A DNA stretch of 64,000 nucleotides from a virus. The notes below the pieces were generated by a model, which was not told the DNA's origin, made no database searches, and saw nothing but the letters and a program-made list of their open reading frames with translations. Positions 2,026 through 62,553 of this stretch are shown piece after piece. Position numbers and translations under genes: made by a program. The stretch spans positions 124,972 to 188,971 of IMG/VR virus record IMGVR_UViG_3300048074_000120. One strand, given 5' to 3'. Every line of letters starts with the position of its first letter. Positions within the stretch are counted from its first letter, which is position 1.

Positions 2026-2050
2026 GAGCCACACGGCTTTTCCTTAGCCC
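2026..2050 (+). terminator. hairpin + T-tract + TTAGCCC element
   Basis: GAGCC-acac-GGCTT then TTCCTTAGCCC. Confidence 0.55.
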
Positions 2051-2100
2051 ACCATCAACCATGCCGCGGGTGTAGACTGGTAGTTGCCGACCAGGCGTAC

Positions 2101-2277
2101 AAAGGCCTCGGAGCATTGGTGCTTCCGGGGCCTTTTGCTTGGAAGCAACCGGCCCGCTGTATCGAAACATTCAGGGTTCAAGGGGATCGAGGCGTAGAAT
2201 GGAATCTGCTCAACGTGTGGTCCTTTGCTGCCCCCGTGTGCGAAGAAAGGCCTCGGTTGGAAACGACCGGGGCCTTT
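2101..2277 (+). repeat. twin hairpins AAAGGCCTCGG-loop-CCGGGGCCTTT (2101-2135 and 2246-2277)
   Basis: Both 11-bp arms are identical between the two copies; the loops differ. Confidence 0.85.
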
Positions 2278-2289
2278 CACTAAGTTGCC

Positions 2290-2868
2290 ATGTGCTCGTT
2301 GCACCTCAGTACTCCGGAAGAGCTGTTCAACAACTACAAACGGCTTGTCGCCCCTATTGTCAGTCACTACTACAAAAAGCTTGGCGCTAGCGCATCGTAC
2401 GACGAGCTCTACCAGTGGGGGCTGATCGGCCTTTGGGATGCCAGCAAGCGCTGGGTGGGTGAGATCGGGGGGTTTTCTTCTTACGCCAAGGGGCGCATCA
2501 GTGGGCAGATCATTGACGAGTATCGCGTCAGCACAAGTTACATTCGACGCCTTGGAAATAGCAAACAGCCCAAGTACGTAAATCTCGATGATGATAATGA
2601 TGAAGAAAGACCCAACCTCCAGCTAGTTGCGTGTACACAGCCCCTAGAGCAAGTCATCCATACCCATAGGAACCTGCGACGTCTAAGTGCCGCTTTCTAC
2701 GAATTGACTGGCAAAGAAATCTGTATCCTTCTTCTTTTCTACTTCGACGGCATAAAACTCCAAGAGATTGCAGAACAACTCGAACTCAGTGAAGCCCGCA
2801 TCTGCCAGATCAAGACGGCCGCCATCAAGAAGCTCAAGCAGGCTACTTGCCTCGAGATTGATTTCTAG
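2290..2868 (+). CDS. RNA polymerase sigma-70 family factor, FliA/WhiG (sigma-28)-like, compact with region 3 reduced
   Basis: Region 2 YDELYQWGLIGLWDA...FSSYAKGRISGQIIDEYR; region 4 HTH LQEIAEQLELSEARICQIKTAAIKKLK. Confidence 0.9.
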   Translation: MCSLHLSTPEELFNNYKRLVAPIVSHYYKKLGASASYDELYQWGLIGLWDASKRWVGEIGGFSSYAKGRISGQIIDEYRVSTSYIRRLGNSKQPKYVNLDDDNDEERPNLQLVACTQPLEQVIHTHRNLRRLSAAFYELTGKEICILLLFYFDGIKLQEIAEQLELSEARICQIKTAAIKKLKQATCLEIDF

Positions 2869-2926
2869 CTACCTTGTCCTTGCCAGCTGGGCTCTTCAAC
2901 CAGTCACCAGCCAGCGGAAGGACAAT

Positions 2927-3514
2927 ATGGAAACACCTAACAAGATAGCTGAGAACTACCAAGACAGCCCCATTCTCACGCACGGGACACGGCCTCTACT
3001 TGAACCCAGCAAGATCGAATGGGCTTCTTCTATGGACAGCCAAGTTGCTATACAGCTTACACATCTGGAAGCCAGCCACGAAAGAATTATCGAATTTCGT
3101 GTGCTCAAATACCACCTTGAAGGGAAAAACCCCGAACACGAAGACTTCTATTCAGCAAGTACCCCATACAGAGCCATCGAGCACACTGGTAAGACCCTCG
3201 AAGAAGCTATCGGCGCTTTGCTGTTCTCCTATGCATGTCTATCCCGCGACGGAGCGTTCAATCCCCGCTTGCCATCGGAGCAAGGCGACCCACCTATCCA
3301 ACATGTTATCCATATCCTGACAGAGAGATTGAACTGGCATGTTGAGCGTCGACACCAGCACATGACAGAGGCTAGCATTGAGCCTGCGGGAGCACCTAAC
3401 GCCCCGTATACAGGAAACCGAGACCAAGCGTTGTCGGCAACTAAAGACGACAACAAGATCATCGCAGCACTGGCCACAGCCATTGCGGCGCTCGGTCGCG
3501 TTGATGAGCTGTAA
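2927..3514 (+). CDS. hypothetical protein (195 aa)
   Basis: AAGGA SD and ATG 2927 within track ORF 2768..3514. Confidence 0.75.
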   Translation: METPNKIAENYQDSPILTHGTRPLLEPSKIEWASSMDSQVAIQLTHLEASHERIIEFRVLKYHLEGKNPEHEDFYSASTPYRAIEHTGKTLEEAIGALLFSYACLSRDGAFNPRLPSEQGDPPIQHVIHILTERLNWHVERRHQHMTEASIEPAGAPNAPYTGNRDQALSATKDDNKIIAALATAIAALGRVDEL

Positions 3515-3564
3515 TTGAACAAAAGGCACTTCCTCCGGTGATAACAACGCTGGAGGAAGTAGCC

Positions 3565-3789
3565 ATGCAGGCAATCAGCAACAGCACGCGTTGGGCATTC
3601 AATGTAGCCACACTCAATGACCTTCGCTGGCAACCAGAAAAGTCGAGTTGGACTCGTGCTTACGAGCAGCGGGTGTATTGGGGGACAGTGGAACTTCATC
3701 AAAAGATCGCCAATGGTGAAGGCAACGCCGTTGACCCAGCAGAGCCAGTGAGCGCACAGATGCTCCGCGAGATAGTCAAAGTCGCGTAA
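3565..3789 (+). CDS. hypothetical protein (74 aa)
   Basis: GGAGG SD and ATG 3565. Confidence 0.7.
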   Translation: MQAISNSTRWAFNVATLNDLRWQPEKSSWTRAYEQRVYWGTVELHQKIANGEGNAVDPAEPVSAQMLREIVKVA

Positions 3790-3803
3790 TTTTCGGAGAT
3801 AAG
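3776..3803 (+). promoter_or_regulatory. phage promoter motif TCAA-N15-GGAGATAAG
   Basis: Same spacing as other copies; GGAGG follows. Confidence 0.7.
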
Positions 3804-3822
3804 AGGGATGGAGGTAGCCAAC

Positions 3823-4113
3823 ATGATGACAGTTTCCGATTCAAGGAAAACCATCGAGAACGCCATCCATAGTTTGCAGCGGTCTCTCGATGTACTGCTT
3901 TTGGCAGACGGCACGGTGATGGACACTCCCCTTGCCCAAAACGCGGCAACGATCCAAGAAGCAGCAGACGCCATTGCCGACGAAGCCACATTCATCGAAC
4001 TCACCGAATCCCCTCGGGGCATCCTCTGCGCGCTGAGGGTGTCTCTCAAGAGAAAGCTGCTGCAGCGAAAGAAGCTGAAGCGCCGAACCATCTTTGTCAC
4101 CGATCGTGAGTAA
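3823..4113 (+). CDS. hypothetical protein (96 aa)
   Basis: GGAGG SD and ATG 3823 after the promoter motif. Confidence 0.75.
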   Translation: MMTVSDSRKTIENAIHSLQRSLDVLLLADGTVMDTPLAQNAATIQEAADAIADEATFIELTESPRGILCALRVSLKRKLLQRKKLKRRTIFVTDRE

Positions 4114-4137
4114 TTTCCCCTCCAATTCGGGGATAAG
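4110..4137 (+). promoter_or_regulatory. phage promoter motif GTAA-N15-GGGGATAAG
   Basis: Same spacing; GGAGG and ATG 4156 follow. Confidence 0.75.
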
Positions 4138-4155
4138 AAGAATGGAGGTACTCAC

Positions 4156-4428
4156 ATGTGTAATTCCAGCCAAAGTTGTTCAGCCACAAAGATCTCAGAC
4201 AAAGCATTAGCCGATGGCATCGATGCAATCTCGTCTGAGCTAGCCATGGCGAAGAGCAACATCCCGTTGGTGACGCAGCAGGAGCAGAGGGAAGAATTCA
4301 TGGCAGCGCTGCACGAGCTCTTGCTCGCCGTCCAAGACGTCAACGTTGGCATCAATCAAGCCAATGACGCGTACGTTGCGGAGTTCGGGGAAAAAGAGCC
4401 CGACACGCTCAACGCGCTACAGCACTAA
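4156..4428 (+). CDS. hypothetical helical protein (90 aa)
   Basis: SD plus ATG after the promoter; terminator follows. Confidence 0.75.
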   Translation: MCNSSQSCSATKISDKALADGIDAISSELAMAKSNIPLVTQQEQREEFMAALHELLLAVQDVNVGINQANDAYVAEFGEKEPDTLNALQH

Positions 4429-4440
4429 GTGAAAACGAGA

Positions 4441-4470
4441 AAATGGGTCACACCATTTTTTCGTAGCTCC
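4441..4470 (+). terminator. hairpin + T-tract + GTAGCTCC element
   Basis: AAATGG-gtcaca-CCATTT TTT CGTAGCTCC abutting the next promoter. Confidence 0.55.
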
Positions 4471-4498
4471 GCAAAGTCGGGTGGTTACAAGGAATAAG
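4471..4498 (+). promoter_or_regulatory. phage promoter motif GCAA-N15-AGGAATAAG
   Basis: Same spacing; AGAAGGAG follows. Confidence 0.7.
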
Positions 4499-4531
4499 AA
4501 GGGTAGAAGGAGATGATGCAAGCCAACTGGC

Positions 4532-4843
4532 GTGCATCGAAACACCATGAAACAAACCCTACCCATCGCCACAGCAACGTTGATGTCTCTCTCCTGGGAA
4601 AAGCCACTCAACTTGGCCACTGGAAAAGGCTATGGCACCAACGAGTACAGCTCTCGAGATCGATACATCTACCGTAGACGCCCCAGTGCGTCAGCGACGC
4701 CGACACGACAGGAAGCTTCGGCATTTGAGTTCCACAGAGCCCCGTACGGACTTGCCTACAACTACAGGACGTGGACCGATGTTCCTGAGAGTTTGTGGGA
4801 GCCTGTTGACGCGTATGGCATGCCCGCACGGCGCGCTGGCTAA
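4532..4843 (+). CDS. hypothetical protein (start uncertain)
   Basis: Track ORF ending before a strong hairpin; an alternative SD-led 54-aa ORF starts at ATG 4513. Confidence 0.45.
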   Translation: MHRNTMKQTLPIATATLMSLSWEKPLNLATGKGYGTNEYSSRDRYIYRRRPSASATPTRQEASAFEFHRAPYGLAYNYRTWTDVPESLWEPVDAYGMPARRAG

Positions 4844-4854
4844 ACATAAAATGA

Positions 4855-4890
4855 ACGGAGGGGTGTACCCTGACAGTACATCCCCTCCGT
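4855..4890. terminator. strong hairpin between convergent genes
   Basis: ACGGAGGGGTGTAC ... GTACATCCCCTCCGT, 14-bp stem with one bulge. Confidence 0.65.
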
Positions 4891-4920
4891 CGGTGCAGTT
4901 TCAGGAATCGAACCTGAGCC

Positions 4921-5178
4921 TCATCCGGCAGGGATTGGGCGTACCACTACAACTCCTTTTTCTAGCGCAGCCTTGGCAGCGTCCATGGCTTCATCCTTGT
5001 TGTCTTTGCTGCCTGCTTCGAGCAGCATCTGACCGTTCCAGATCGCCCAATTATAACTCGTGCCGTCAAACGTTCCCTCGACCTTGGCGTGTAGCTGCGT
5101 ACCTTTTACGGAGCCATACCAGCAGTCCACATGCTGCCACTCGAGTTTGCGAGGAAATTCAACAACCTTGCCGGACAT
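4921..5178 (-). CDS. hypothetical protein (85 aa)
   Basis: ATG-started ORF with protein-like composition, convergent on the hairpin. Confidence 0.65.
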   Translation of the reverse strand: MSGKVVEFPRKLEWQHVDCWYGSVKGTQLHAKVEGTFDGTSYNWAIWNGQMLLEAGSKDNKDEAMDAAKAALEKGVVVVRPIPAG

Positions 5179-5181
5179 GAT

Positions 5182-5209
5182 CTAAAGCCTAGCAGTTTTC
5201 AGGCATAAG
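5182..5209 (+). promoter_or_regulatory. degenerate phage promoter motif CTAA-N15-AGGCATAAG
   Basis: Same spacing; GGAGG 6 nt after. Confidence 0.5.
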
Positions 5210-5213
5210 CACA

Positions 5214-6422
5214 TTGGAGGTCACCCTGTCAAAGAAAGACCAAAAGGGGCGTGTGCACCGGAAGGAACAGAAGCTGAAAAAGAGCAGAGAAAAGCTGCGA
5301 CAACGAGCAGCCACAGAACAGCTGCTGCACCCACAAAAGTTACCGATGAATGAATCGATGCTTCCAGTTGGGATCCTGTTTTGGTATTTCGTCAGGTGTC
5401 TCTGGTTGGGTAAGGAAAACCCAAGGATGGGTGAATACAAGGATCATATTGAAAAGCTCATCACCAGCAACGACGCCATTGGCAGCGCAGCACAATTTGC
5501 GAGTGCTGCTTCCTTCATGATGAAGGAACTACACCTAAGCTCAGAGTTTGTGGGAAAACTTGTCACATTTTTACAGCTATCTCTTCGACCAGAGAGCAGC
5601 AACATAAAGCAGCATAGTATTTTTGCTGACTGGTATGACAATGGTATGCCAGTGATCGAGGTGGGGCACAAGCTTGCGGCGTCATACATGGCCACTCGGA
5701 TCACAAAGGAGATGACTGCGAAAGCGCATTTACCTTTCTCATCTTTCAAGATTCAAGTCCCGGCGGGGCTACTACAACTAACGGATTGCCTAACAGGCAA
5801 ACCCGCGAACGTGACTGGACTGTACGTAGGCATTATGCTTGTGATGAGCACAGAACTCCGAGGCAAAGTCGAGGCATTGAGTGCAGAGGAAATTGCGCAG
5901 CAGTCTGGGCAACGCCCCTACATGCTATTAGTCAGCGACACAGGTACCTCGGCATGGCGGTCTTCATTCGATGCGGAAGAGGTGTTTACCTCTGCCGAAG
6001 TACCAGATGGAAAGTCTGCCGGACTGGATATGTCGCTGGAAGATCTGGACAAGCGGGCAATGATTTTGGCTGGGAGACTAGCAGCCAGCGTAATACTGCA
6101 CATCAATGGCGGGGAAGGGTGCTCGAGAGTCGGCACTGGCCATGAGAACTTCGATAGCACAACGAACAGGCGCAAATCTCCTCTCCCAACGCATAGAAGA
6201 TTTGTAATCACCAGAGATGTGCAACACGATATGCGTGAAGCCATACGAGACTTCATGTCTGGCAACAGAAAAACTCTCAGCGTGCAAACCATGGTTACTG
6301 GGCACTGGCGGTGGCAGCCCTTCGGAGCAGGTAGAACTCAGGTGAAACACATCTTCATTGAGCCATTCTGGAGAGGCCCAGAAGATGCCCCTATCGCACT
6401 ACGCAGACATAAACTTGAGTAA
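5214..6422 (+). CDS. uncharacterised phage protein with C-terminal GHWR...G...I.PFW.GP motif (start uncertain)
   Basis: 402-aa ORF; VTGHWRWQPFGAGRTQVKHIFIEPFWRGP resembles a widespread uncharacterised phage family. Confidence 0.8.
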   Translation: MEVTLSKKDQKGRVHRKEQKLKKSREKLRQRAATEQLLHPQKLPMNESMLPVGILFWYFVRCLWLGKENPRMGEYKDHIEKLITSNDAIGSAAQFASAASFMMKELHLSSEFVGKLVTFLQLSLRPESSNIKQHSIFADWYDNGMPVIEVGHKLAASYMATRITKEMTAKAHLPFSSFKIQVPAGLLQLTDCLTGKPANVTGLYVGIMLVMSTELRGKVEALSAEEIAQQSGQRPYMLLVSDTGTSAWRSSFDAEEVFTSAEVPDGKSAGLDMSLEDLDKRAMILAGRLAASVILHINGGEGCSRVGTGHENFDSTTNRRKSPLPTHRRFVITRDVQHDMREAIRDFMSGNRKTLSVQTMVTGHWRWQPFGAGRTQVKHIFIEPFWRGPEDAPIALRRHKLE

Positions 6423-6436
6423 TTTTCGGGGATAAG
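6409..6436 (+). promoter_or_regulatory. phage promoter motif ATAA-N15-GGGGATAAG
   Basis: TAATTTTCGGGGATAAGAA nearly identical to 3788-3805; AGAAGGAGG follows. Confidence 0.75.
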
Positions 6437-6463
6437 AAAGATAGAAGGAGGTACAAATCAAGC

Positions 6464-7030
6464 ATGACGCTTGCTGCATTTTACTCAGATCCACACATCG
6501 GGCATGCCAACATCATCAAATACTGCGAGAGGCCTTTCACCGATGTGGAGGAAATGAACCAAACCCTGGTGCAGCGCTACAACGCCAAGATCGATCGCAA
6601 GGACGTTGTCCTGTGGCTGGGGGATTGCTTCTTCAAAGGAGACCCCACCCGTTATCGAGACACCCTCCTGCAAATGAACGGTACCAAAATCCTACTAGTT
6701 GGAAACCACGACGGCTCCATGCCGGCTATGGCCAACCTTGGTTTTGCCTTGGTGCTGCAGGAAGCAGTACTCAATATTCGAGGGGTCACTTGCAGAGTGA
6801 ATCACTACCCCTACGAGGCCATACCTGTCTACGAGAAGCCTGATAAGTTTGCCGCGCTTCGCCCGCGCAAGCATCCAGGAGAGATTCTCATTCACGGACA
6901 CAACCACGCCAAAGGCCCTGTCAACGGCAACCAAATCAACGTGGGCGTGGACGCTTGGGATTTTGGCCCAGCCATGTACTACGAAGTTGCCGACTTAGTA
7001 GATCGTATCAAGCAAAGGACAACTACATGA
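6464..7030 (+). CDS. calcineurin-like metallophosphoesterase
   Basis: Motifs SDPHIGH, LGDCFF, VGNHDG, NHYP, IHGHNH, INVGVD. Confidence 0.92.
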   Translation: MTLAAFYSDPHIGHANIIKYCERPFTDVEEMNQTLVQRYNAKIDRKDVVLWLGDCFFKGDPTRYRDTLLQMNGTKILLVGNHDGSMPAMANLGFALVLQEAVLNIRGVTCRVNHYPYEAIPVYEKPDKFAALRPRKHPGEILIHGHNHAKGPVNGNQINVGVDAWDFGPAMYYEVADLVDRIKQRTTT

Positions 7031-7455
7031 GCATCAAAGATTGGCATGTTGGGCAGTCTGTCGTCGTACACTTCCCGCACGCAAACCAAGGTTCTATCCG
7101 GCAGCTGGATACAGAAATTGTCAAGCTAGGTCGGAAATACATCACCGTCAGAGGGGTTCAAGGGGAGTTCGATGCGGACCTTCCCATTCCCCGCTCAGGC
7201 CAAGAAGAGCTGTACACGCCCGAGGGGTACCAAGAGAAAGTGTACGTAACGAGTGTCTTACTCGAGCTTGACCGCAACAGATCTTTGTCGCGCATCCCAG
7301 CTCAAGTACTTATCCCAATAGGAGACTATCTAGGGATTGAAAAACCTGAACATCTACAACCCAAGCAGGAGATAAACCATGTTGAAGAAGAACCTAAGCC
7401 AAGCAGTACTCATCCTCGCCGTCCTAGTTACCGGCGTGCCAGCAAGGGCCAATGA
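7027..7455 (+). CDS. hypothetical protein (142 aa)
   Basis: ATGA overlap with the phosphoesterase stop. Confidence 0.65.
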   Translation: MSIKDWHVGQSVVVHFPHANQGSIRQLDTEIVKLGRKYITVRGVQGEFDADLPIPRSGQEELYTPEGYQEKVYVTSVLLELDRNRSLSRIPAQVLIPIGDYLGIEKPEHLQPKQEINHVEEEPKPSSTHPRRPSYRRASKGQ

Positions 7456-7618
7456 CGTAGACAACACCTGCAGAGCCAAGCGGTTCCGCTGCGAGTCCTT
7501 CTGCAGTTCCAGCAACAAGGTGGGCTCGATGGAGCACCTCAAGTGCAACGAGCAATGTCGAGACGACGAGAGCTTCTGTCGTAAAATAGGCTTTGCTCCA
7601 GACAGGAGGTACTACTAG
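7379..7618 (+). CDS. small secreted six-cysteine protein (79 aa)
   Basis: CAGGAG SD; signal-peptide-like N-terminus ending ARA; C-x6-C-x3-C-x13-C-x3-C-x6-C. Confidence 0.7.
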   Translation: MLKKNLSQAVLILAVLVTGVPARANDVDNTCRAKRFRCESFCSSSNKVGSMEHLKCNEQCRDDESFCRKIGFAPDRRYY

Positions 7619-7620
7619 TC

Positions 7621-7803
7621 ATGAAACGACCCGGCAAAAAGACACTGGCACAAAAAATGGCAGAGTCCGCTGCAGCCGGAGTGCAGGTGCAGCCCAAAGA
7701 CAAGTCCAACTACAAACCGGCACCTCGCCCCGAGCCGCCCCCTCCTGAGGTTTTCGAAAACAAGCCCTTTGCCAAAATGCTAGTACCCGGTGGTAAGCCA
7801 TGA
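7621..7803 (+). CDS. hypothetical Pro/Lys-rich protein (60 aa)
   Basis: Tightly packed ORF in the operon. Confidence 0.55.
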   Translation: MKRPGKKTLAQKMAESAAAGVQVQPKDKSNYKPAPRPEPPPPEVFENKPFAKMLVPGGKP

Positions 7804-8066
7804 TCGCAAGAAGCCCAGTTACTAAGATGAAGCAGCTGCCCCTGCCCTTCGATACCAAGTTCGTTCCAGGATGGAAGGGAAACAGATACCTGCTGTGCGA
7901 TGACAACCAATGGCACCTAGTGTTGGAGATTAGAGAGGGGGGCGTCGCAGACACCCAATGCTGCGAAGACGTACGACTGAGCGAGCACCCTACGTCGGGC
8001 GCGAAGGGCCTTCCTATGTGTGAGACATGCGTGAACCTTCAGTTTCCGAAGAAGGCCGCCAAATGA
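7800..8066 (+). CDS. hypothetical Cys-containing protein (88 aa)
   Basis: ATGA overlaps on both sides; CC and CxxC. Confidence 0.6.
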   Translation: MIARSPVTKMKQLPLPFDTKFVPGWKGNRYLLCDDNQWHLVLEIREGGVADTQCCEDVRLSEHPTSGAKGLPMCETCVNLQFPKKAAK

Positions 8067-8683
8067 GCTTCTCTCTCACCAGCAAACCGCACTACCTGTC
8101 CATTGACATCGACTACTGGACAGACTCCGAATTCGGCAAGTTCATTTGGGAATTCGGAAGGTTTCTGCTTGAGAGGCCCAAGGACATCCCCATCACTGCG
8201 GTGATGAACCATCAGCAGCTGCTCTGGAACGTAAACCGCACAAACGTGCAACGTCTAGTGAATATCGATTTCCACTCGGACCTAGTAAGCAGTGATGTGC
8301 AAGAGCTGCATTGTGGTTCCTGGGTCTCCTACGTGCACTGGCGACGCTGGGGCGAATACATCTGGGTTCGCCCGAAGAAAGACCCGAGCATGGGGTCGTG
8401 CAATGGCGAGAACAAGTGGTCTGAAGGCACTGATTGGAAAAAGACCACCGAAGTCATTCGCGATCCCAACTACATGCACCTGCGCACGCTTTATCGAAAC
8501 TGCAAAGGCATCGGCGTCTGCATGAGCCCGGCCTTCGTCAATCAAGCCATGCGCGCCGCTTTCCTCATGCTCATTGCAGAGAATGGAATCCCCTACCGAG
8601 AGGGAGATCCTACAGAACACATCTCTGTGCCGCGCCGCCCGCCTGGCGCAACAAGAAGAAAGTTCAAGCTCGCCAGTGGCTAA
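8063..8683 (+). CDS. UPF0489/arginase-deacetylase-fold-like protein
   Basis: LSIDIDYW, NHQQLL, LVNIDFHSDL, GSWV motifs; ATG 8063 overlaps the upstream stop. Confidence 0.6.
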   Translation: MSFSLTSKPHYLSIDIDYWTDSEFGKFIWEFGRFLLERPKDIPITAVMNHQQLLWNVNRTNVQRLVNIDFHSDLVSSDVQELHCGSWVSYVHWRRWGEYIWVRPKKDPSMGSCNGENKWSEGTDWKKTTEVIRDPNYMHLRTLYRNCKGIGVCMSPAFVNQAMRAAFLMLIAENGIPYREGDPTEHISVPRRPPGATRRKFKLASG

Positions 8684-8684
8684 G

Positions 8685-9164: not shown

Positions 9165-9436
9165 ATACCGCCGCCAAGGTTGGGCATACGCGCGGCTTTG
9201 GCGGCCATCCTCTTCTCTTTGATGGCTTTGACAATATCCCCACTGGCTCCAAGGCCATAGCCGGCGGCAGCCCCTGCCAAAGGATCTACGCCAACCATCT
9301 TTGCGACCCCGGCTCCGCCTACAGCGCCCAGTGCCGGGCCAAGCTCATGCTTCGCGCCCTCCCAGAAGTTTCCCAGAGCCCCTGAGGCACTGAGTTTCTG
9401 GAGCTCTTCACGCATGAAACCTGCCGCGTTTTCCAT
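9161..9436 (-). CDS. Gly/Ala-rich protein with FMREELQKLS motif (putative virion internal protein)
   Basis: Shares the N-terminal ELxK(L/I/V)(A/S/G) motif with the 45.6-51.5 kb cluster. Confidence 0.65.
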   Translation of the reverse strand: MENAAGFMREELQKLSASGALGNFWEGAKHELGPALGAVGGAGVAKMVGVDPLAGAAAGYGLGASGDIVKAIKEKRMAAKAARMPNLGGGI

Positions 9437-9477
9437 AGGAGTCAATCCTACACCACAGCCAAGAAGAAAGGAATTAC

Positions 9478-11123: not shown

Positions 11124-11131
11124 TTGACTGG

Positions 11132-11160
11132 AACGGTGCCTGCGACCGTTTCTTAGCTCC
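11132..11160 (+). terminator. hairpin + TTCTTAGCTCC element
   Basis: AACGGT-gcctgcg-ACCGTT TCTTAGCTCC abutting the next promoter. Confidence 0.6.
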
Positions 11161-11188
11161 GCAATCCACCGCAAGAATCGGGGATAAG
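11161..11188 (+). promoter_or_regulatory. phage promoter motif GCAA-N15-GGGGATAAG
   Basis: Consensus copy; AGAAGGAG and ATG 11203 follow. Confidence 0.8.
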
Positions 11189-11202
11189 AAAGGTAGAAGG
11201 AG

Positions 11203-11761: not shown

Positions 11762-12382
11762 CTAGGGCTGCTCTTTCGTAGCGTCGTATCGTCCCAGGTT
11801 GGCCATCTTCAGCCTCCTGAGCTCGACGGCGCGCTCGATGAACATCACGGCCTGCTCCGCCGAGAAGGGCTTGGCAAGGAAGCAGAAGGCCCCTAACTCC
11901 CTTGCTTTCATGGTCCCTCCCTCATAGCCGCTGATCATGATGACCTCAACTGTGGGGTACTCCCTACGTACATATTCGAGGAGCGTATGCCCGTTCTTCG
12001 GCATGATCGCATCAGCCATGACCACATCGATATCGGGAGTACCCGCCAAAATCTCCATGGCTTGGGTGCTGTTCTCTGCACCAAAAACCGTCATCCCAGA
12101 ATCCTCGAGGATGCGCACTAGCGCCTTTCGCACATCCTCGTAATCATCCACCACCAGAACAGTGGCCCCCTTCACGCTCGTGACAACCCGCTTTCGAAGG
12201 GGACAGTCTAGTCCGCAGTTCTCACCCTGGATCAAGCCTTGAACCGTCAGATCATCCCTCAACTTGCCCAAATCCCGTTGCCATTGGTCCCGCAGCACAT
12301 TGAGCTCTTCAGTCCAAAGTGTCCGGATACGGTCTGCGGTCTTGTCGGCTACGGTTTGAGCTAGTTGAAGAAGATCCGTCAC
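11762..12382 (-). CDS. response regulator: N-terminal helical domain + CheY-like receiver domain
   Basis: VLVVDD, VVMADAIMP (phospho-Asp), IMISG, LAKPF. Confidence 0.92.
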   Translation of the reverse strand: MTDLLQLAQTVADKTADRIRTLWTEELNVLRDQWQRDLGKLRDDLTVQGLIQGENCGLDCPLRKRVVTSVKGATVLVVDDYEDVRKALVRILEDSGMTVFGAENSTQAMEILAGTPDIDVVMADAIMPKNGHTLLEYVRREYPTVEVIMISGYEGGTMKARELGAFCFLAKPFSAEQAVMFIERAVELRRLKMANLGRYDATKEQP

Positions 12383-12392: not shown

Positions 12393-12429
12393 TCGTATCT
12401 AAAATACCAGAGATACGATTTTTAGCCCA
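12393..12429 (+). terminator. hairpin + TTTTTAGCCC element
   Basis: TCGTATCT...AGATACGA TTTTTAGCCCA between two minus-strand genes. Confidence 0.5.
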
Positions 12430-13494: not shown

Positions 13495-13501
13495 GAACAG
13501 G

Positions 13502-13541
13502 AAAGGCGCATCCCCTAGGGAACACGCCTTTTCTTAGCCCC
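13502..13541 (+). terminator. hairpin + TTTTCTTAGCCCC element
   Basis: AAAGGCG...CGCCTTTT CTTAGCCCC at a convergent junction. Confidence 0.7.
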
Positions 13542-31972: not shown

Positions 31973-31983
31973 TCGTAAGGATG

Positions 31984-32013
31984 AACTGGCCCTGCCGGTT
32001 TTTCCTTAGCCCC
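31984..32013 (+). terminator. hairpin + TTTTTCCTTAGCCCC element
   Basis: AACTGGC-cct-GCCGGTT TTTCCTTAGCCCC abutting the next promoter. Confidence 0.7.
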
Positions 32014-34282: not shown

Positions 34283-34296
34283 TCAGGGCACCATGG

Positions 34297-34332
34297 GAAG
34301 GGCCATTGAGTAATGGCCCTTCTTTTAGCCCT
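34297..34332 (+). terminator. hairpin + TTTTAGCCC element
   Basis: GAAGGGCCATT-gagt-AATGGCCCTTC TTTTAGCCCT; contains the TAA of the convergent gene. Confidence 0.7.
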
Positions 34333-54739: not shown

Positions 54740-54740
54740 G

Positions 54741-56687
54741 TCAAATGAGGCTCAACAGGTCAAAGCCTGTGGCTCCAGACTGAGTAAGGCACGGGACGTT
54801 GTATGGGTTAGTTGGCGCAAAGCCAAGCCGACGCCCTGTGGCTGTGAGTGCATTGCCGTTAGGAATAAGGGAGCCCGGGGCCGCGAAGATGGCAAAGGCG
54901 CTAATCGATCCGCCTACTGCAACAGAGGCTCCCCCGCCCACTCCGGCGTAACTATCTCCGGCACCAACGCCGCCGAACCCTGTACCAAAGCCGGGTTTAG
55001 GCGTGAGTAGTCGCTCCAGATCACTGCTTTGATTCTCAACGCCGGCCAGTGTGAGATTGGAAGGAGCCATATAGCCTGGGTCTCCCATGGGCCCAAAGCT
55101 TGCCCCGAATCCAAGTCCTCCGTAATCGCCATAGCCGGCTTTTCCGTACCCGGGTCCTCCATAAGGACTATCGTAGCCGTAAAGGGGATCACCAAACCCT
55201 GTATCGACACCAGCCACGGCCACGGCTGAGGCCCCTGTACTAAAGAGGACATCGCCTTGGGCTGCGGCAAGAGCTCCAGCTGAGTAGGCGGAAGCGGAGA
55301 CTCCTGCGGCGACAAAGCCATTTGCGGAGGATCGAGCGCCGGCTCCGGCGGAGCCAAAGGCGCCCACGCCGGCAAAAGCACCAGCGCTAAATCCGGCTCC
55401 GGCTCCTGCGCTCGCACCAAAACCAAATCCAGCGCCAGCGCTGCCACCAAAGCCCACTCCAGCACGCGACGTTGCACCGAACGTCGCCCCTGCGCCAATA
55501 CCAGCGCCAATGCCAGCACCAAATCCAATACCAACCCCAATTCCAGCGCCAAAGGTAACTCCCATCCCCAGGCCATTGAGCGCCTGGTAGCTATTGATGT
55601 TAGCGCCAAAGCATGCCATCCAGCTGATCGCTTCCTGGAACAAGTCGTCTACCTCTAGCGCGTCACGCACCAGAGGGTCAATCGAGTCTGGAGTTTCCCC
55701 GTGATAAGGGTCGATTGTAATGACGCCCGAGCCCGTGTACTCATCGGTGTTGTCCGCAATCAATCCTCGCAGCGGCTTTTGATTGAACTGCTCGAACATC
55801 AAGTCTGTGTAGCCCTGCTCTTGCAAGCTATCGATGTAGGCTTGTACCGATGCCGGAAACGCCACCGAGTGCGCCCCTTGGTTCAAGGTTTGGACTAGCC
55901 TGCCCACATTGCCAAAGCCATTCTCGTCCGAATTGCGTTCGACCTCGTCGGGCCACGACGAGGTATCGTCGAGGGGTCGTCCACCATCGGAGAGTACTGT
56001 CAGTAGCTTGCCAAAGGCGTCAGCAGCTGTGAGGGAAACATCGGGGGGAAGTACAACAGACTCAGCCACAGGAAAGTTCGGGTCACCCACGAACGAGACG
56101 TTTCGGTAACTCGAGACGAACATCCGCCAGCTGAGCTGTACCAGGAAGGGTTCTGTGCTCACTGTGACTGCTTGCGCGAGAAGCATGTAGCCTTCGACAA
56201 CGTTGTCATCGTAAAACATGTAAGTGCGAGCACCGTTCTCAACAGACTTCGAGCCCCGCAGCGTGTTGTCCCAGTTAGCCCACCACTCCGCCTGCCAGTT
56301 GAAGTCGTTGCTGTTGATGAGAACTGCCTGCACCTCAAGGAAGCGTGGGGACTCCCCGAAGAGGTAGAGGTACGTATCTCCGAAGGTCTCGATAATCTGG
56401 TGCTTCTCCATGCGGGCTTCCTGCACCGACTGCAGGATGAAATTCGAGTAGGAGGTAGAACGCCCCGTCGGTGAGCTCGAATCTAAGAAGGGGACTTCTG
56501 TCCCATCCGAACGAATCACCTTCAACGCGCCATAGGTGTCTTCCTTGATCTCTAAACCCCGCAAAGGGCGGCGCACATTCGAAAGCCCCGCTCTCCCGCT
56601 TCTAGACAATGCTGGGTCGTTTCTCCGCTTGAGTCGATTGTAGTTAGCCTCGAACGCATCCGTGCACAATTCGATGAACACGGCCAA
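54741..56687 (-). CDS. probable tail/baseplate protein with silk-like Gly-Ala-rich C-terminal region (648 aa)
   Basis: N-terminal FILQSVQE.RMEK.QIIETFG..Y.Y.FGE.PR tail-tube-fold-like segment; GFGAGIGAGIGAGA repeats. Confidence 0.65.
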   Translation of the reverse strand: MAVFIELCTDAFEANYNRLKRRNDPALSRSGRAGLSNVRRPLRGLEIKEDTYGALKVIRSDGTEVPFLDSSSPTGRSTSYSNFILQSVQEARMEKHQIIETFGDTYLYLFGESPRFLEVQAVLINSNDFNWQAEWWANWDNTLRGSKSVENGARTYMFYDDNVVEGYMLLAQAVTVSTEPFLVQLSWRMFVSSYRNVSFVGDPNFPVAESVVLPPDVSLTAADAFGKLLTVLSDGGRPLDDTSSWPDEVERNSDENGFGNVGRLVQTLNQGAHSVAFPASVQAYIDSLQEQGYTDLMFEQFNQKPLRGLIADNTDEYTGSGVITIDPYHGETPDSIDPLVRDALEVDDLFQEAISWMACFGANINSYQALNGLGMGVTFGAGIGVGIGFGAGIGAGIGAGATFGATSRAGVGFGGSAGAGFGFGASAGAGAGFSAGAFAGVGAFGSAGAGARSSANGFVAAGVSASAYSAGALAAAQGDVLFSTGASAVAVAGVDTGFGDPLYGYDSPYGGPGYGKAGYGDYGGLGFGASFGPMGDPGYMAPSNLTLAGVENQSSDLERLLTPKPGFGTGFGGVGAGDSYAGVGGGASVAVGGSISAFAIFAAPGSLIPNGNALTATGRRLGFAPTNPYNVPCLTQSGATGFDLLSLI

Positions 56688-56688
56688 A

Positions 56689-57252
56689 TTACACCCAGCT
56701 CTCTTTACGAACGATATTACCGATGGTGGTGCTGTCTACGTCGTATTTCACGGCCAAGTCCTTGTAGAAGTACTTTCCAGTTGCATACTCAACCCTTATC
56801 TTAGCAGCCAGGGCCCTAGTCAACTTGGCCTTGCAGTTTTTCTCCCCTCGCCATGGTCGGGCTTTCCTCGTCCAGTGTTCATCCCCGTGTTTCAGCCACT
56901 CGGGATGCTTTCTTGCCCAATGCGTATCCCCGCTTTGATGTACCTCCCGTCCACGAGCTTTCCTATCAGCTGCATTCTGCCTTTGTGTCCCTAGGTACAG
57001 GTGTGAAGGATTGACGCAACCTGGGTTATCGCAGTGGTGTAGAACGCAAACTCCTTTAGGCCATTTACCAAAATGTATTTTCCACGAAGCATGCGTTGCA
57101 TGCACTAGCTTCCCAGTGAAACCTATATACCCATAGCCGCCGGATTTAGACGCAGTCCACTCCCAACAGCATGTTTTCATGTGCGGCATCTGCCGTCCAC
57201 ATTTGTTGACCTTTTCCCAAAACCGTTCTTCTAGTGGCCTTGTTGCCGGCAT
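56689..57252 (-). CDS. HNH homing endonuclease (HNH_3-like) with C-terminal HTH
   Basis: RFWEKVNK..CWEWTA..GYG..VLHHCDNPGCVNPSHLYLGTQRQN. Confidence 0.92.
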   Translation of the reverse strand: MPATRPLEERFWEKVNKCGRQMPHMKTCCWEWTASKSGGYGYIGFTGKLVHATHASWKIHFGKWPKGVCVLHHCDNPGCVNPSHLYLGTQRQNAADRKARGREVHQSGDTHWARKHPEWLKHGDEHWTRKARPWRGEKNCKAKLTRALAAKIRVEYATGKYFYKDLAVKYDVDSTTIGNIVRKESWV

Positions 57253-57276
57253 GAAAAGGGTCTATAGTATCCTAAT

Positions 57277-57304
57277 GAAAATAGCAACTAAATTCAGGAA
57301 TAAG
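57277..57304 (+). promoter_or_regulatory. phage promoter motif GAAA-N15-AGGAATAAG
   Basis: Same spacing, Y|R predicted start at 57311. Confidence 0.55.
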
Positions 57305-57310
57305 ACACAT

Positions 57311-57472
57311 GAGAGACAACCACATTTGTGAACTACAGCACTATTACGTTCAACAAGCAGTCAGGAGTCGACGCGAGAAGACATTGATTGACGTATAGAC
57401 AGCCACCGAATCCCCGGTGGCGGCCGGGGCGGGAGCCCCGGCGCGTTGAATCGCCCCTTGTTTTTAGCTACC
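57311..57472 (+). ncRNA. candidate sRNA (promoter to hairpins + TTTTTAGCTACC)
   Basis: Predicted start falls inside the only ATG; two GC hairpins 57392-57441. Confidence 0.35.
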
Positions 57473-57473
57473 T

Positions 57474-57501
57474 GAAAATTCCCCGACAGATCAGGGATAA
57501 G
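57474..57501 (+). promoter_or_regulatory. phage promoter motif GAAA-N15-AGGGATAAG
   Basis: Same spacing, Y|R predicted start at 57508. Confidence 0.65.
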
Positions 57502-57561
57502 ACCACTGTACAGCGAACTCACTTGTAGATTGACGGATCTCGTGAAGTTATACGGCGCACA

Positions 57562-57600
57562 GCATGCCCCGACGGGGGCATGCCGCTGACTTTAGCTACC
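57562..57600 (+). terminator. hairpin + TTTAGCTACC element
   Basis: GCATGCCCC-gacg-GGGGCATGC then cgctgacTTTAGCTACC. Confidence 0.45.
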
Positions 57601-57618
57601 AACCACAGGAGAAAGTAC

Positions 57619-58014
57619 ATGAGCAATACCAGCGTAAAAGAGCCTGCAGTGCACTGGGGATTCAGCGCAGAGATAGAAAAGATAGACATACAACGCATCC
57701 TCAATGAGGCTGAGGACGCAGGTCTTACCCTGTTCTCAGTGAGTTACACGTCGAGAATAGGCCCTGAGAAGATCTTCTTCGTGAAAATTGGAACCAACGA
57801 CCATGCTGCCGTCAAGGATGTAATCGACCATTTAGATTCAGCCGGGGAAGGCACTAGGCTTACAGATGACGGAGCAGAGCCCGGAGGCAGCGGTCAATGG
57901 GCAGTATTCGCCTGTGAGGATGATGCTGTAGAAAAAGAAATGCTTGAACATGTAACCGTTGCCCGTAAATGGTACGGGAGGAAAAAGCATCGTGTTGCGG
58001 TTGTAGGGTACTAA
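57619..58014 (+). CDS. acidic hypothetical protein (131 aa)
   Basis: AGGAG SD and ATG 57619. Confidence 0.8.
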   Translation: MSNTSVKEPAVHWGFSAEIEKIDIQRILNEAEDAGLTLFSVSYTSRIGPEKIFFVKIGTNDHAAVKDVIDHLDSAGEGTRLTDDGAEPGGSGQWAVFACEDDAVEKEMLEHVTVARKWYGRKKHRVAVVGY

Positions 58015-58032
58015 CCTGCAACGGAAAGCTTG

Positions 58033-58068
58033 GTTGACATTACCGTCAACTGCGCTTTCTTTAGCCCC
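58033..58068 (+). terminator. hairpin + TTTCTTTAGCCCC element
   Basis: GTTGAC-attacc-GTCAAC then TTTCTTTAGCCCC directly after the convergent TGA. Confidence 0.55.
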
Positions 58069-58338
58069 TCAAATGACAACGTCTTGCTTGATGATGAAGT
58101 CCCTGAGCTGCCGAGCTGGAGGAGTACCTGCATAAGCTTCTCCTTGCGCAATGGCAAAGGCGGCAGCCTTCATCATCACAATCAGCATGTCCTCTACCAC
58201 GATCTTGTCACGCAGGATGAAACGGTAAATGCGACCGCCCTTGCGAAGTGACACGGGAATCTCCGTACGATCACACTGGCCACAGCCCGGTGGTACATGA
58301 AGCGTTGCTCCGTCTTGGTACAAAAGCGAACGAGCCAT
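58069..58338 (-). CDS. hypothetical protein coupled to the tape-measure-like gene (89 aa)
   Basis: TAATG coupling at 58338. Confidence 0.75.
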   Translation of the reverse strand: MARSLLYQDGATLHVPPGCGQCDRTEIPVSLRKGGRIYRFILRDKIVVEDMLIVMMKAAAFAIAQGEAYAGTPPARQLRDFIIKQDVVI

Positions 58339-61300
58339 TACTTCTCACCATCTTTCTTTGCCGCTTCACGCGTGTTGCTCTGGATGTTAGCCAGCTCTCT
58401 TGCCGCATCCTTATTGGCTTGCACCATGGCCTTCAAGTAGTTGTTGCCCTCACCAAGCTTATCGATGATCTTCTCCTCAGGAGAGCCACGGCCCTTGGCT
58501 AGTTCTTCGAGCTTCTTTCTTGCCTCTGGATCGTTTTGTAACGTTTGACTTAGGAGGATACTGCCTGCAGCGCCGCCGCCCTTCTTCGTGGCAGCCGCCA
58601 TGGAAGCTGTGAGGCCTTCCACGAGTTTTGTATCGTCACCGAGGCCGAGCTTTGCCGCTAGCATCTTGGCAGCACTGCCTGCGTCGGCCCCTTTCAATCG
58701 AGCCGCCTCTTCTGGCGTCAAGTCCATGCCAAGGGCACCGGCAAAGGCTCCACCAATGCCACGCTTACCCTTGCTGGCATCTATGCCCATCCCACGCATG
58801 ACGGCTTCTGAGGCGATGCCGCCACGAGCTGTGCCTGCCAAGGAGCCCGCCACTGCCTTCATCTCCTTAGTGCTTAGACCAGACAAGCTGCGCATGAAAT
58901 CGCTGTTGGCCGATTCCATGGCGGCAAGGCCTTCTCCCTCTGGACCAAGGTGTGCTTCTGCCGACTGGGCTGCCATGGCGAGCCGAGCAGCTTGTACTGC
59001 CCCTTTGCCGCCCTTAGCGAGAAGACCCTTTTCAGTAGCGGCGGTAAGGGAGAACACACCGTCTTTATACGTGGCGATGCCACCGGCTTGAATGAAGTTT
59101 GCTTCGTCACGTGAGGTGCGTGTAATCTGCTCGGCGATCTTTGTCTTGATCTCCTGCTGCGCGCGCGCTGCGCCACCGCGCACGGTATTGAACTGACCTT
59201 GCAGCGCGTCTACGGACATCTTGGCCTTACCGGCTAGGTTCGACCAATCCTCCGCGGTCAGCTTATCTACGCCACCACGCTTGAGGGCAACGGCCATGAC
59301 CTCGCCAGCGTTTTGTACCGCTCGCAGCGAGCCAGCCTCACCAATAGCAGCGTCGCTCTTGTCACCTTGTAGTTCAATGAGTCGTCGGTTTATCTGCTCG
59401 GAGGCCTTGGTGTCTCCTGTGAGTACACCCAGCGCCAGGCTGCGCGTCTCCGCTTTGTCAAAGAGCGCGCCTGCGGCTTGAGCCTGCGCGTCCTTGGCAC
59501 GATTGAAGAAGCGATCGGCAATGATGCTGAAGATACTGGTGCCGCCGGGTGCCATTCCAGAGGCCATGCCGCCGCCACCCATAGCGATGGCGCGAGTCTG
59601 ATCCGCAGTTTGCTTGAGCCTATCGTCTGAGGTTGAAGTTGCCAGCAGCCCATGGCCCAGGCGCTCTCTTGCTCGAGCGTTGGTTCTGTCGTCTCCCCCA
59701 CCGACTAACTCAGGCAGCTGCGGGATGTTGAAGGACTCACTGAGCCGGCGCTCGGCTGGGATCTTCAGCTGGCTTTCCATCTCCTGAATCCGCATTAGGA
59801 CTTCTTTGCGATCCTTGCCGTGAAGGAACGCTTGCATCTCCGTGTCACCTTTGAAGGCTTCGCGCAGCTGGTACAAACGGTCCTCGCCCTGGGCCGAGGC
59901 TGTGCCTCGAGCGTAGACATCGAGCAGCTTTGACTGCCGAGAGTCAATCATGCCGCGGTCCCCAGCACTCAAGCTCTGTGCGCTCGCCATGCGAGTGGCA
60001 AACTGGTAGTCCTGCATTTTGTTGATGTAGGCACGTTGACCAATGTCTTCGTGCGGCCCACCCCCGGCAAGAGCTGGCCCTAAGTTGCCCCCGGTCAGCG
60101 CTTTGACCGCAGAGCGGCCAGCTCCACCGCCAAGCAGCAGTGACTTCTTGAGGTCCTGCACTTCGATCTGCCGCTCTTCGTACACGCCAGCAATCTTGTT
60201 CCCCCACTCCGCAATCATGTCGGTGGTGGAGTTGAGAATGTCCTGCCCGACCTTTTGCATGCTGTTGTTGACTTGGTCGCGTGCCGCCTCGAGCTTGCGT
60301 TTGATGCCCTCAATGCCAGAGCCCTGCGCCCGCAGGCCATGCTCACGGGAGAACACATCCTCTTGGGCCATCTCCCGACGGTGCTCGAGCAACTCAGGCA
60401 TGCGGCGAGCCATCTTGACCAGGGCATCCGCCTCATCGCGTCCCATGCCCATTTGGCGCTGCATGAAGAGCATCTCTCGATCACCCATCGAGTTGATGTC
60501 GATGCCTTTGCCCTGAGCCCAACCCATCATGGCCATCGCTGGAGCAAGACCGCCAAATTCCTCCATCACTGCGCCACGAAGTCGGCCCTCGTTTCGGATA
60601 AAGTTCGCCCGTCCCACCCCACGCAAGTTTCTATATGCCGCTCCGCGAGTATCCCCCACGGACATGCCGCCTGACATGAAATCAGCTACCGAGCCTGCAT
60701 CGAGCTGACCATTCTTACCGGCCATGGACGCTAACAGCCAGCGACCGCGGGACGACTTCAGGAAAGAACCCGTCTGCAGCAGGTTCTGCTGCGCCATCGC
60801 CTGGCGTCCCTCGGCGCCGGTGAGCCCTGTGGACTGGTAGATGTCCTCTTCAGAAAGGATTCCTGTCTGCAGCGCCGAGCCCACCTGCTCGATGGAGCGG
60901 ATGCCACCCATCGCTCCTTGGCGCCCGGTGCCGCCAAACATGCGGCTGATTTGGGAGCCGATGTTCATCATTCCTGTAACCTCGGTGGTAGCTAGGCCAC
61001 CGGCTACCGTCGCTCCACGGATCGCGCTGCCCACGCCCGCCTGCCGGCTAAAGACGCCTGACCCCTTCATGGAGGCCATCATCTTTTGGGCTTCTTCGAG
61101 CGTAGTGCCCATGTCCTCGGCGATGGTTTTCACCGAGCGCATCATCTCTTTGAACTTGTCGGTAAACTCCTTGGCGTTACGCACGCCATCGGCAAGCCCC
61201 ATCCGTCCCATGTTGGCTGCCAGGCGCCCGAGCTCGGCAAAGCTTGGACCTAGTTGGAACTGGTCTCCAGTACCACCGAATTGCGCCCCCTGATGACCCG

Positions 61301-61799: not shown

Positions 61800-61969
61800 T
61801 ACCTTTTCATAGTATCACGCAAAAATGTGGGCAGACCGGGGATAAGAAAGTCGAAGGTACTGAACAGCTCTCCTCTCACATGGAGTGCATCTCCTTCTTC
61901 TTGGTTGGTACCTCCAGCTCGTCCTTTGGCAAGGCGAGTGTCCGTCCCCACGGGCCCCATCGATGACAT
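61799..61969 (-). CDS. possible 56-aa leader ORF coupled to the tape-measure-like gene (not in ORF track)
   Basis: CAGGAG SD + ATG 61969; TAATG overlap with the TMP start. Confidence 0.35.
   Translation of the reverse strand: MSSMGPVGTDTRLAKGRAGGTNQEEGDALHVRGELFSTFDFLIPGLPTFLRDTMKR
61819..61846 (+). promoter_or_regulatory. phage promoter motif GCAA-N15-GGGGATAAG
   Basis: Consensus copy, predicted start 61853; no SD-led ORF follows. Confidence 0.75.
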
Positions 61970-62035
61970 CCTAACTCCTGCTGAGTGTCATCGGTGGGGC
62001 GCCACTAATACCAAGGGCACCTATGGCTTAGCCCC
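61853..62035 (+). ncRNA. candidate sRNA or antisense RNA with anti-SD motifs
   Basis: Promoter, CU-rich tracts, 15-bp hairpin 61954-62000, ends at CTTAGCCCC. Confidence 0.4.
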
Positions 62036-62062
62036 TAAAAACCAGGGCAAACCAGGGATAAG
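62035..62062 (+). promoter_or_regulatory. phage promoter motif CTAA-N15-AGGGATAAG
   Basis: Abuts TTAGCCCC; AAGGAGG and ATG 62083 follow. Confidence 0.75.
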
Positions 62063-62082
62063 AACTGTGAAGGAGGAAGACG

Positions 62083-62196
62083 ATGCTGGTCATAATGGGC
62101 CTGGTGGGTATCGAACTGCTCATCAAAGTGCCCCTAAAAATTCACAACAAGTTCATGAGGGATCTCGCAAAGGCTAAGGCCGCAGGACGTTTATGA
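62083..62196 (+). CDS. small membrane peptide (37 aa, not in ORF track)
   Basis: AAGGAGG SD; MLVIMGLVGIELLIKVPLKIHNKFMRDLAKAKAAGRL; ATGA overlap with the next ORF. Confidence 0.65.
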   Translation: MLVIMGLVGIELLIKVPLKIHNKFMRDLAKAKAAGRL

Positions 62197-62501
62197 TGAA
62201 TCCAATGAACTTATCCGAGGCAGAACGTAGAGAAAAACAGCAGGAGGCAGGCCTGGAATTCCTGCCGAGATTGGAGCTAGTCGTGAGTGAATCAGTGAAT
62301 AACAAGACAGATAACGGCAACCGACGCGCGCAGGAAACCGAGCGCAACCAAGCCCGACAGGTCCTTCACAGGCTTTCCCGAGATGAAAGCTTTTGGGGGA
62401 TTGCGCTCCATGAACTGAAAAGAGCCGCGGTTACGGTCCCCATTTTCGCCACAGCTGCCTTGGGGGTTCTGTGGGTGAATAAGCGCTTCATACTCAAATG
62501 A
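62193..62501 (+). CDS. hypothetical protein with C-terminal TM helix (102 aa)
   Basis: AVTVPIFATAALGVLWV. Confidence 0.7.
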   Translation: MMNPMNLSEAERREKQQEAGLEFLPRLELVVSESVNNKTDNGNRRAQETERNQARQVLHRLSRDESFWGIALHELKRAAVTVPIFATAALGVLWVNKRFILK

Positions 62502-62507
62502 AGTAGC

Positions 62508-62553
62508 GGAAAAGACGCCGGTTTTACATGACCGAGCTTCTTTTCTTAGCCCC
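62508..62553 (+). terminator. hairpin + TTTTCTTAGCCCC element
   Basis: Imperfect hairpin then TTTTCTTAGCCCCTCAAATGAC; TTAGCCCCTCAAATGAC (17 nt) is identical to 58061-58077. Confidence 0.6.

Follow-up and report, generated by a model that had tools for sequence, protein, structure and literature searches.

We analyzed a 64-kb window of viral DNA (bases 124972-188971, i.e., the terminal 64 kb of the 188,971-bp virus record IMGVR_UViG_3300048074_000120; 55% G+C) and found that an eight-base box, TTAGCCCC, stands directly after many transcription terminators in the uncultured phage group to which the record belongs. The box is a real, conserved, terminator-distal element. It lies inside modules that resemble the promoter-early stem-loop (PeSL) cassettes of T4-type phages, in an undescribed phage group that encodes its own RNA polymerase. 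Judging from the sequence comparisons described below, the box may well be the distal portion, encoded in the DNA, of a terminator type peculiar to this group.

The record under study is called G000 here. A megablast search with positions 1-20000 of the window found no match in the deposited phage record collection. Five relatives (G001-G005, 186-195 kb) were detected via protein similarity and compared as whole genomes; their identity for two virion proteins (1153 aa and 1053 aa) is 50-91%. Genomes of the group are 170-195 kb in size. The gene calls came from a simple script and are approximate. Most genes lie on what we call the major strand, which is the minus strand in the window, and the cassettes of interest lie on the minor strand. 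G000-G006 (six complete genomes and a seventh that is 92% complete) all have an open frame of ~2150 aa that encodes the beta domain of an RNA polymerase. We demonstrated the beta-beta' fusion in G000, where Rpb2 domains 3 and 6 precede Rpb1 domains 1, 2, and 5 in the protein. A search for the T7-type polymerase (PF00940) gave no match, but the control likewise gave none. The class II terminator signal of single-subunit phage polymerases, ATCTGTT, is absent from the box.

The box is strongly enriched. Allowing at most one mismatch, TTCTTAGCCCC has 13 matches in the window, where 1.05 are expected, and the promoter core GGGGATAAGAA has 11, where 0.74 are expected. When we ranked minor-strand intergenic 8-mers in five genomes, the top two were GGGATAAG, from the promoter core, and TTAGCCCC. 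A previous reading of the window from its sequence alone (the sequence-only reading) had listed about 12 plus-strand copies and placed nearly all of them directly after a terminator hairpin. Both claims were borne out: [T/G]TAGC(C/T)(C/A)(C/A) is present at all 12 listed positions, and at nine of these (2044, 4463, 11153, 12422, 13534, 32006, 34325, 58061, and 62546) a hairpin and T tract lie 0-3 nt before the box. At 57464 and 57592 there are strong GC hairpins upstream that lack a canonical T tract, and at 62028 no terminator is adjacent. The window hairpins were computed; the adjacency of hairpin and box at 11153 was assigned by eye, the best computed hairpin there lying 20 nt upstream. The sites are listed in Table 1.

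Table 1. Box sites, promoter cores, and genes discussed in the text. Coordinates are those of the window unless G000 is named.
Feature	Position	Strand	Remarks
Hairpin (to 2043) and box TTAGCCCA	2022..2051	+	Tandem context, upstream of sigma-factor gene
192-aa sigma factor, regions 2 and 4	2290..2868	+	Candidate promoter reader
Terminator hairpin and box GTAGCTCC	4437..4470	+	Adjoins -35 GCAA of promoter core 4490-4500
Terminator hairpin and box TTAGCTCC	11130..11160	+	Adjoins -35 of core 11180-11190; left edge of 11203-11742 cassette
Promoter core GGGGATAAGAA, GCAA 15 nt upstream	11180..11190	+	Example
CTCTTTC-GTAGCGTC	11770..11785, approximate	+	Right edge of 11203-11742 cassette, by eye
Hairpin, TTT, and box TTAGCCCA	12393..12429	+	Between two minus-strand genes; only in G000
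Terminator and box TTAGCCCC	13500..13541	+	End of unit 12993-13541; kept in G001
Terminator and box TTAGCCCC	31979..32013	+	Followed by promoter core 32033-32043; head of cassette with helicase and 298-aa gene
Terminator and box TTAGCCCT	34296..34332	+	TTA is stop codon of convergent gene 34325-35110
HNH_3 homing-type endonuclease gene	56689..57252	-	Only in G000 and G001; plus-strand cassette insertion hotspot, between conserved late genes
GC-rich hairpin, 8-nt gap, box TTAGCTAC	57416..57471	+	Adjoins -35 of core 57493-57503
Conserved GC hairpin without T tract, box TTAGCTAC	57553..57599	+	Left edge of gene cassette 57619-58014
Terminator and box TTAGCCCC	58023..58068	+	Right edge of 57619-58014 cassette; stop of convergent 58069-58338 is next
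Box TTAGCCCC without adjacent terminator	62028..62035	+	Adjoins -35 of core 62054-62064; box kept in G000-G003
Terminator and box TTAGCCCC	62509..62553	+	After gene 62193-62501; orthologous in six genomes
Look-alike TTAGCCAC	63731..63738	+	Inside minus-strand ORF 63517-63969; probably not the same element
Further promoter cores	1644, 4129, 4490, 6428, 12993, 31685, 32033, 57296, 57493, 61838, 62054		
Fused beta-beta' RNA polymerase, 2143 aa	G000 54062-60493	-	Locus L178

To define the anatomy of these sites, we compiled hairpins followed by a T-rich tract and TAGC from six genomes. This yielded 108 copies, 69 of which carry the full TAGC(C/T)(C/A)(C/T). The consensus runs C-TTTT-C/T-T and then T-A-G-C-(C/T)-(C/A)-(C/T), beginning at the end of a hairpin extended by GAAAAG...CTTTTC. 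A logo of the 69 copies shows information only in the T tract and seven bases, apart from a weak R-W-T after them, and nothing beyond +12. All 69 copies have 5-7 T in the 8 nt preceding the A of TAGC, and the distance from the last stem G to that A is 10-11 nt in 41 of them; the base after the last stem G is C in 38 and T in 25. At most sites in the window, the folded stem, lengthened by the GAAAAG/CTTTTC pairs, stops 0-3 nt short of the box. The sites share with the canonical intrinsic terminator a GC-rich hairpin followed by a U tract.

Of 62 exact copies of TTAGCCCC in the six genomes, 20 come after a T-rich tract and hairpin, versus none for four control 8-mers. We also scanned the viral collection for the exact 14-mer CTTTTCTTAGCCCC and obtained 110 matches, of which only 5 had a hairpin, the rest being mostly chance. 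Two of the five were G001 and G002. Two more, L088 and L068, are additional relatives that also have the promoter motif, so the hairpin-bearing matches point to specificity for this clade; the L088 genome encodes the same large polymerase, and no polymerase was found in the L068 source, which is a 77%-complete fragment.

We then measured how often predicted terminators carry the box. Terminators were chosen by a motif-blind filter, and the box was scored as (T/C/G)TAGC within 16 nt of the T tract. It was present at 30 of 63 minor-strand intergenic terminators (48%) and 12 of 71 major-strand ones (17%), versus 24 of 509 intragenic hairpin-plus-T sites (5%; Fisher test against the intragenic sites, P = 3e-18 for the minor strand and P = 5e-4 for the major strand). 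In five genomes, the box occurred in 25 convergent, 12 tandem minor-strand, and 12 tandem major-strand contexts. Therefore, it is not confined to mobile cassettes or to one strand. The claim that copies sit on or just after the stop codon of a convergent gene also held, since in the 25 convergent cases the opposite gene's stop codon lies -1 to +11 nt from TAGC. All six genomes share an orthologous terminator downstream of gene 62193-62501. There, compensatory change is seen at 6 of 16 stem pairs, neither the T tract nor TAGCCC varies, and the sequence past the box has diverged. This is the strongest single evidence linking the box to terminators. Given the strand and intergenic bias, together with stem covariation around an invariant TAGCCC, we therefore take the box to be a part of the terminator that is under selection.

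How might the box act? We propose a design in which an RNA hairpin with arms lengthened by GAAAAG...CTTTTC is followed by a short, interrupted U tract and then by TAGC and a C-rich run. Counting from the last stem G, the 3' end of the RNA would fall on the T or the A of TAGC. At release, the bases A-G-C-C-C-C would then be in the duplex downstream, immediately in front of the active site of the polymerase. In that position, the box would most likely make the polymerase halt or release, either directly by its sequence or through a bound factor. A short U tract could thereby terminate efficiently in one direction only, shielding convergent late genes that lie a few bases on. A bolder form of this idea is possible, though we doubt it: TAGCCCC would be a private, sequence-specific termination signal, read by the phage beta-beta' polymerase or a phage factor, that ends units even without a U tract and doubles as a linker for the exchange of early-gene cassettes.

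Intrinsic terminators are usually described as a hairpin and a U tract with no fixed sequence after them, and older reports describe effects of terminator-distal sequence on the early terminators of T3 and T7. The sequence-only reading had taken as its premise that no conserved sequence is needed past the U tract. That premise is challenged by the recent HUB model, in which intrinsic termination takes more than a hairpin and U tract and also depends on dinucleotides at the edges of the bubble, GC(U)7RU (bioRxiv 10.64898/2026.05.29.728758). The model and the box share a hairpin, a U tract, and, where the U tract ends or at the release point, a demand on sequence that RNA structure does not explain. 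The model is thus a published precedent for intrinsic termination that can require particular sequence at the U-tract end. However, the HUB elements are two dinucleotides of modest information (GC at -11/-10 and RU at -2/-1), whereas the box is 7-8 nt long and nearly invariant.

Several observations weigh against the box being simply a terminator part. After the last U it reads A-G-C(-C-C-C) and not R-U, so it appears not to fit the GC(U)7RU rule of the preprint that unsettles the older premise. To our knowledge, an invariant box of 7-8 nt goes far beyond any downstream effect described for bacterial polymerase. Roughly half of the convincing predicted terminators have no box. A few conserved copies (57592 and the equivalent ones in G001 and G005) lack a U tract, and the 62028 locus and its orthologues in G001-G003 lack an adjacent terminator. 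Such copies are more in keeping with a free-standing DNA site than with a simple lengthening of the U tract, and they keep alive the reading of the box as such a site, whether protein bound or sequence specific.

The minor-strand units begin with a promoter of the form (G/T)(C/G)AA(A)-N15-GGGGATAAG(A), followed by AGGTAGAAGGAGG and ATG. It is in the style of FliA/sigma-28 promoters (GCAA/TGAAA-N15-GGGGATAAG). The box is upstream of only 13 of 110 candidate promoters (12%); where it is, TAGC lies 25-28 nt before the core (32 nt once), adjoining the -35 element. At four listed G000 sites, the distance from TAGC to GGN is 26-27 nt, i.e., a gap of 19-21 nt past the 8-mer, as the sequence-only reading had measured. 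The box-promoter modules in the window number five (4463, 11153, 32006, 57464, and 62028). Four of them are among the 13, together with 9 in relatives; the 57464 module was assigned by eye and is outside that list. Wherever a terminator adjoins a promoter, terminator, box, and promoter form one unit of ~80 bp. With the box at only 13 of 110 promoters, it is therefore not a general promoter element, and we rejected the idea that it is a general upstream one.

The window and its relatives contain two further promoter types. The first is a second flavor, GG(C/T)ATAAG(A), which is enriched in intergenic DNA on both strands (e.g., G000 156536 and 140488) and also occurs upstream of major-strand operons. 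The other is a sigma-70-like TTGCAR-N16-TATAGA upstream of gene 62689-62967 (window ~62600-62680), also present in G001 and G005, which suggests a separate promoter class read by the host polymerase.

Next, we consider gene gain and loss between relatives. The sequence-only reading had proposed that breakpoints in related genomes might fall in the boxes, and gene gain and loss does fall at box-bearing terminators. Two indels lie between two boxes, a third lies between two box-bearing terminators, and another lies between two promoter cores. Gene 11203-11742, absent from G001, lies between TTAGCTCC and GTAGCGTC, and G001 has a single TTTAGCGTC after the same hairpin. Likewise, gene 57619-58014, unique to G000, is flanked directly by TTAGCTAC and TTAGCCCC, and G001 carries one CTAGCCCC at that position. 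The plus-strand unit 32062-34282, which holds a helicase gene (PHROG 16) and a 298-aa gene with a weak HNH match, is self-contained and absent from all relatives examined. A box-bearing terminator stands on either side of it. Of the two hairpins, it is the right-hand one that the hairpin kept in G001 resembles; therefore, the joint was probably upstream of the hairpin and not in the box. The indel bounded by two promoter cores is an extra small gene in G001.

The gap between the 648-aa and 61-aa late genes differs in content between genomes. In three relatives (G002-G004) the two genes overlap with no insert, which agrees with the earlier description of the plus-strand units as self-contained cassettes placed antisense in late operons. 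G005 has a promoter, an RNA of ~90 nt with no open reading frame (ORF) and a GC hairpin, and a box. G001 has an HNH endonuclease gene in addition to the G005-type content, and G000 has, in addition, a second promoter unit with gene 57619-58014. The ORF-less unit, a promoter and ~90-nt RNA ending in a GC-rich hairpin, is at 57493-57592 in the window, at 165713-165620 (minus strand) in G001, and at ~154202-154100 (minus strand) in G005. Its hairpin stem shows compensatory changes between genomes, and it is a candidate small RNA or leader. Outside the window, G000 64743-65006 (plus strand) carries a promoter core, a short hairpin, and a terminator with GTAGCTCC in ~260 nt with no obvious ORF. G001 and G005 conserve this region, which may be another unit without an ORF.

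We searched five complete genomes for tyrosine recombinases (Phage_integrase, PF00589) and serine recombinases (Resolvase, PF00239) and found neither, while the controls were positive. From this absence and the positions of the indels, the shuffling looks PeSL-like, through short homology, and not integron-like; the comparison with PeSL cassettes in the sequence-only reading was apt. In T4-type phages, PeSL cassettes are recombinase free, and their exchange is attributed to homologous recombination (PMC2839356, PMC4122927). The modules described here likewise lack a dedicated recombinase, combine a terminator stem-loop, a promoter, and a Shine-Dalgarno sequence in one short intergenic module, and are repeated around small orphan genes in variable regions. 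The indels are flanked by modules, with a single module at the empty site (11153/~11778, 57592/58061, and 32006/34325). There are also differences. PeSL promoters are sigma-70 promoters with an AT-rich upstream region, whereas those here are in the FliA/sigma-28 style. This phage group is not T4-like and has its own fused beta-beta' polymerase. In addition, here an invariant 8-mer comes right after the T tract, also at stand-alone terminators, on both strands, and in conserved gene blocks. Each unit boundary repeats the ~14 bp of T tract and box and the ~25 bp of the promoter core. These repeats would therefore offer short homologies for the insertion, loss, and replacement of promoter-gene-terminator units, and recombination at them would be the likely route, as with PeSL cassettes.

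Could the box be the crossover site of a dedicated site- or structure-specific recombination system, integron-like or built of hairpin plus core, that mobilizes the cassettes? We consider this unlikely. It would account for the two indels that have boxes on both sides and one box where the insert is missing, and for the third between two box-bearing terminators, and a hairpin followed by TTAG superficially resembles the attC R' core GTTRRRY. Like attC arrays, the window has a short hairpin-associated core at cassette boundaries and small genes that point the same way. However, since a terminator is needed by every unit, boxes on both flanks are expected even if the box is purely functional, and the indels therefore do not prove that it is the crossover site. 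At locus 31715-34325, the hairpin kept in G001 points away from a joint in the box, and one indel is bounded by promoter cores. Unlike integrons, the five genomes searched have no IntI-type recombinase, and the cassettes have their own promoters and terminators. In attC, the paired cores are RYYYAAC...GTTRRRY, whereas the box is unpaired and outside the stem, has no conserved inverse copy upstream of the hairpin, and reads TTAGCCC, which does not fit TTRRRY. Furthermore, the box is conserved at terminators within invariant gene blocks and on the major strand. The integron-like hypothesis of the sequence-only reading is thus not supported, given the lack of recombinases in five genomes, the missing paired core, and the indel between promoter cores. 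A still weaker candidate, to which we give very little credence, is that the box is a by-product of overlapping stop or C-terminal codons of convergent genes, or chance. TTA is the convergent gene's stop in about eleven cases. At 34325, where the box marks the junction with convergent gene 34325-35110 in all six genomes, the last codon and stop are (G/A)GC TAA throughout. Protein coding explains the copy at 63731, because Ala-Lys-Lys-Lys is read there in all six genomes. But 24 copies are tandem with no convergent gene, the stop lies past the box in most convergent cases, and at 34325 the amino acid varies (Gly/Ser) while GCTAA is kept. Chance is excluded by the enrichment statistics. The by-product explanation is largely refuted already by the tandem copies.

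Two other explanations invoke the resemblance of the box to the promoter. On the opposite strand, the box and T tract match the promoter core and downstream bases at 12 of 14 positions, five of which are T tract. The description of the box as the reverse complement of the promoter core with one mismatch was literally true, but 5 of the 11 matching bases are mere T tract, and the mismatch falls on an invariant base of both motifs (GCTA versus GATA). If the box were a site for a DNA-binding protein, of the phage or the host, that marks unit boundaries, it could act as a roadblock or insulator or as a docking site that passes the polymerase to the next promoter, perhaps with the same reader as GGGGATAAGAA. 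We regard this as a minority possibility. It suits the boxes that persist at boundaries without a U tract or hairpin (57592, 62028, and their orthologues), the 25-28-nt distance (32 nt once) from TAGC to the core where a promoter follows, and the inverted similarity to the core, and an invariant asymmetric 8-mer is typical for protein binding. Nevertheless, few candidate promoters have the box, the sole core mismatch sits on the invariant position, no candidate binding protein was identified, and the tight spacing may merely reflect intergenic compaction. The sequence-only reading had also raised antisense promoters. It is highly improbable that the opposite strand, GGGGCTAAGAA, is one and serves to silence early cassettes or to start late transcription anew. 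It resembles the promoter core, and the copy at 58061 has GCAA 15 nt upstream. However, that GCAA falls within the conserved coding end of a 61-aa gene, which is why G001 keeps it, and the 69 aligned copies hold no conserved -35-like element at the expected place. The A of GGNATAAG, found in every compiled promoter copy, is always C in the box (GATAA versus GCTAA), and the transcript would start inside the hairpin and serve no gene. Pairing between the 5' and 3' ends of transcripts, another earlier suggestion, was set aside; it would require a transcribed promoter core. We also rejected the box as an ops-like element (GGTAGCGTG) read by a NusG-like factor, with no NusG domain in five genomes, and as an RpoH-type -10 (CCCCAT), with little information in the positions after CCCC.

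In this group of large phages the hairpins are thus rewritten, whereas the box at the predicted release point stays invariant even across ~50% protein divergence. Were the box to raise or direct termination, it would offer a strong natural example of termination control by downstream sequence. It would then possibly be tuned to the phage multisubunit polymerase, and it might be of use as a small one-way terminator element. The modules also extend the PeSL idea, in which orphan genes have regulatory modules as their recombination linkers, to phages with no relation to T4.

PHROG and Pfam scans of the large virion genes and cassette genes gave no family for most of them, and Rfam and tRNA scans of the window gave no matches. 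We also noted several other features. A phage-encoded response regulator consisting only of a receiver domain is at 11762-12382 (minus strand) and is also in G001 and G004. The leader of gene 63015-63665 (~62985-63015) has a hairpin centered on GACGTGGGGTC with a Shine-Dalgarno sequence just after it. GACGTGGGGTC is identical in six genomes (orthologues in five relatives) while the stems differ, and this leader is a possible regulatory RNA element. The same gene (plus strand) overlaps ORF 63517-63969 (minus strand) in antisense by ~150 nt, and both frames are open in G001. The tail of the minus-strand ORF is rich in Ala, Pro, Ser, and Lys.

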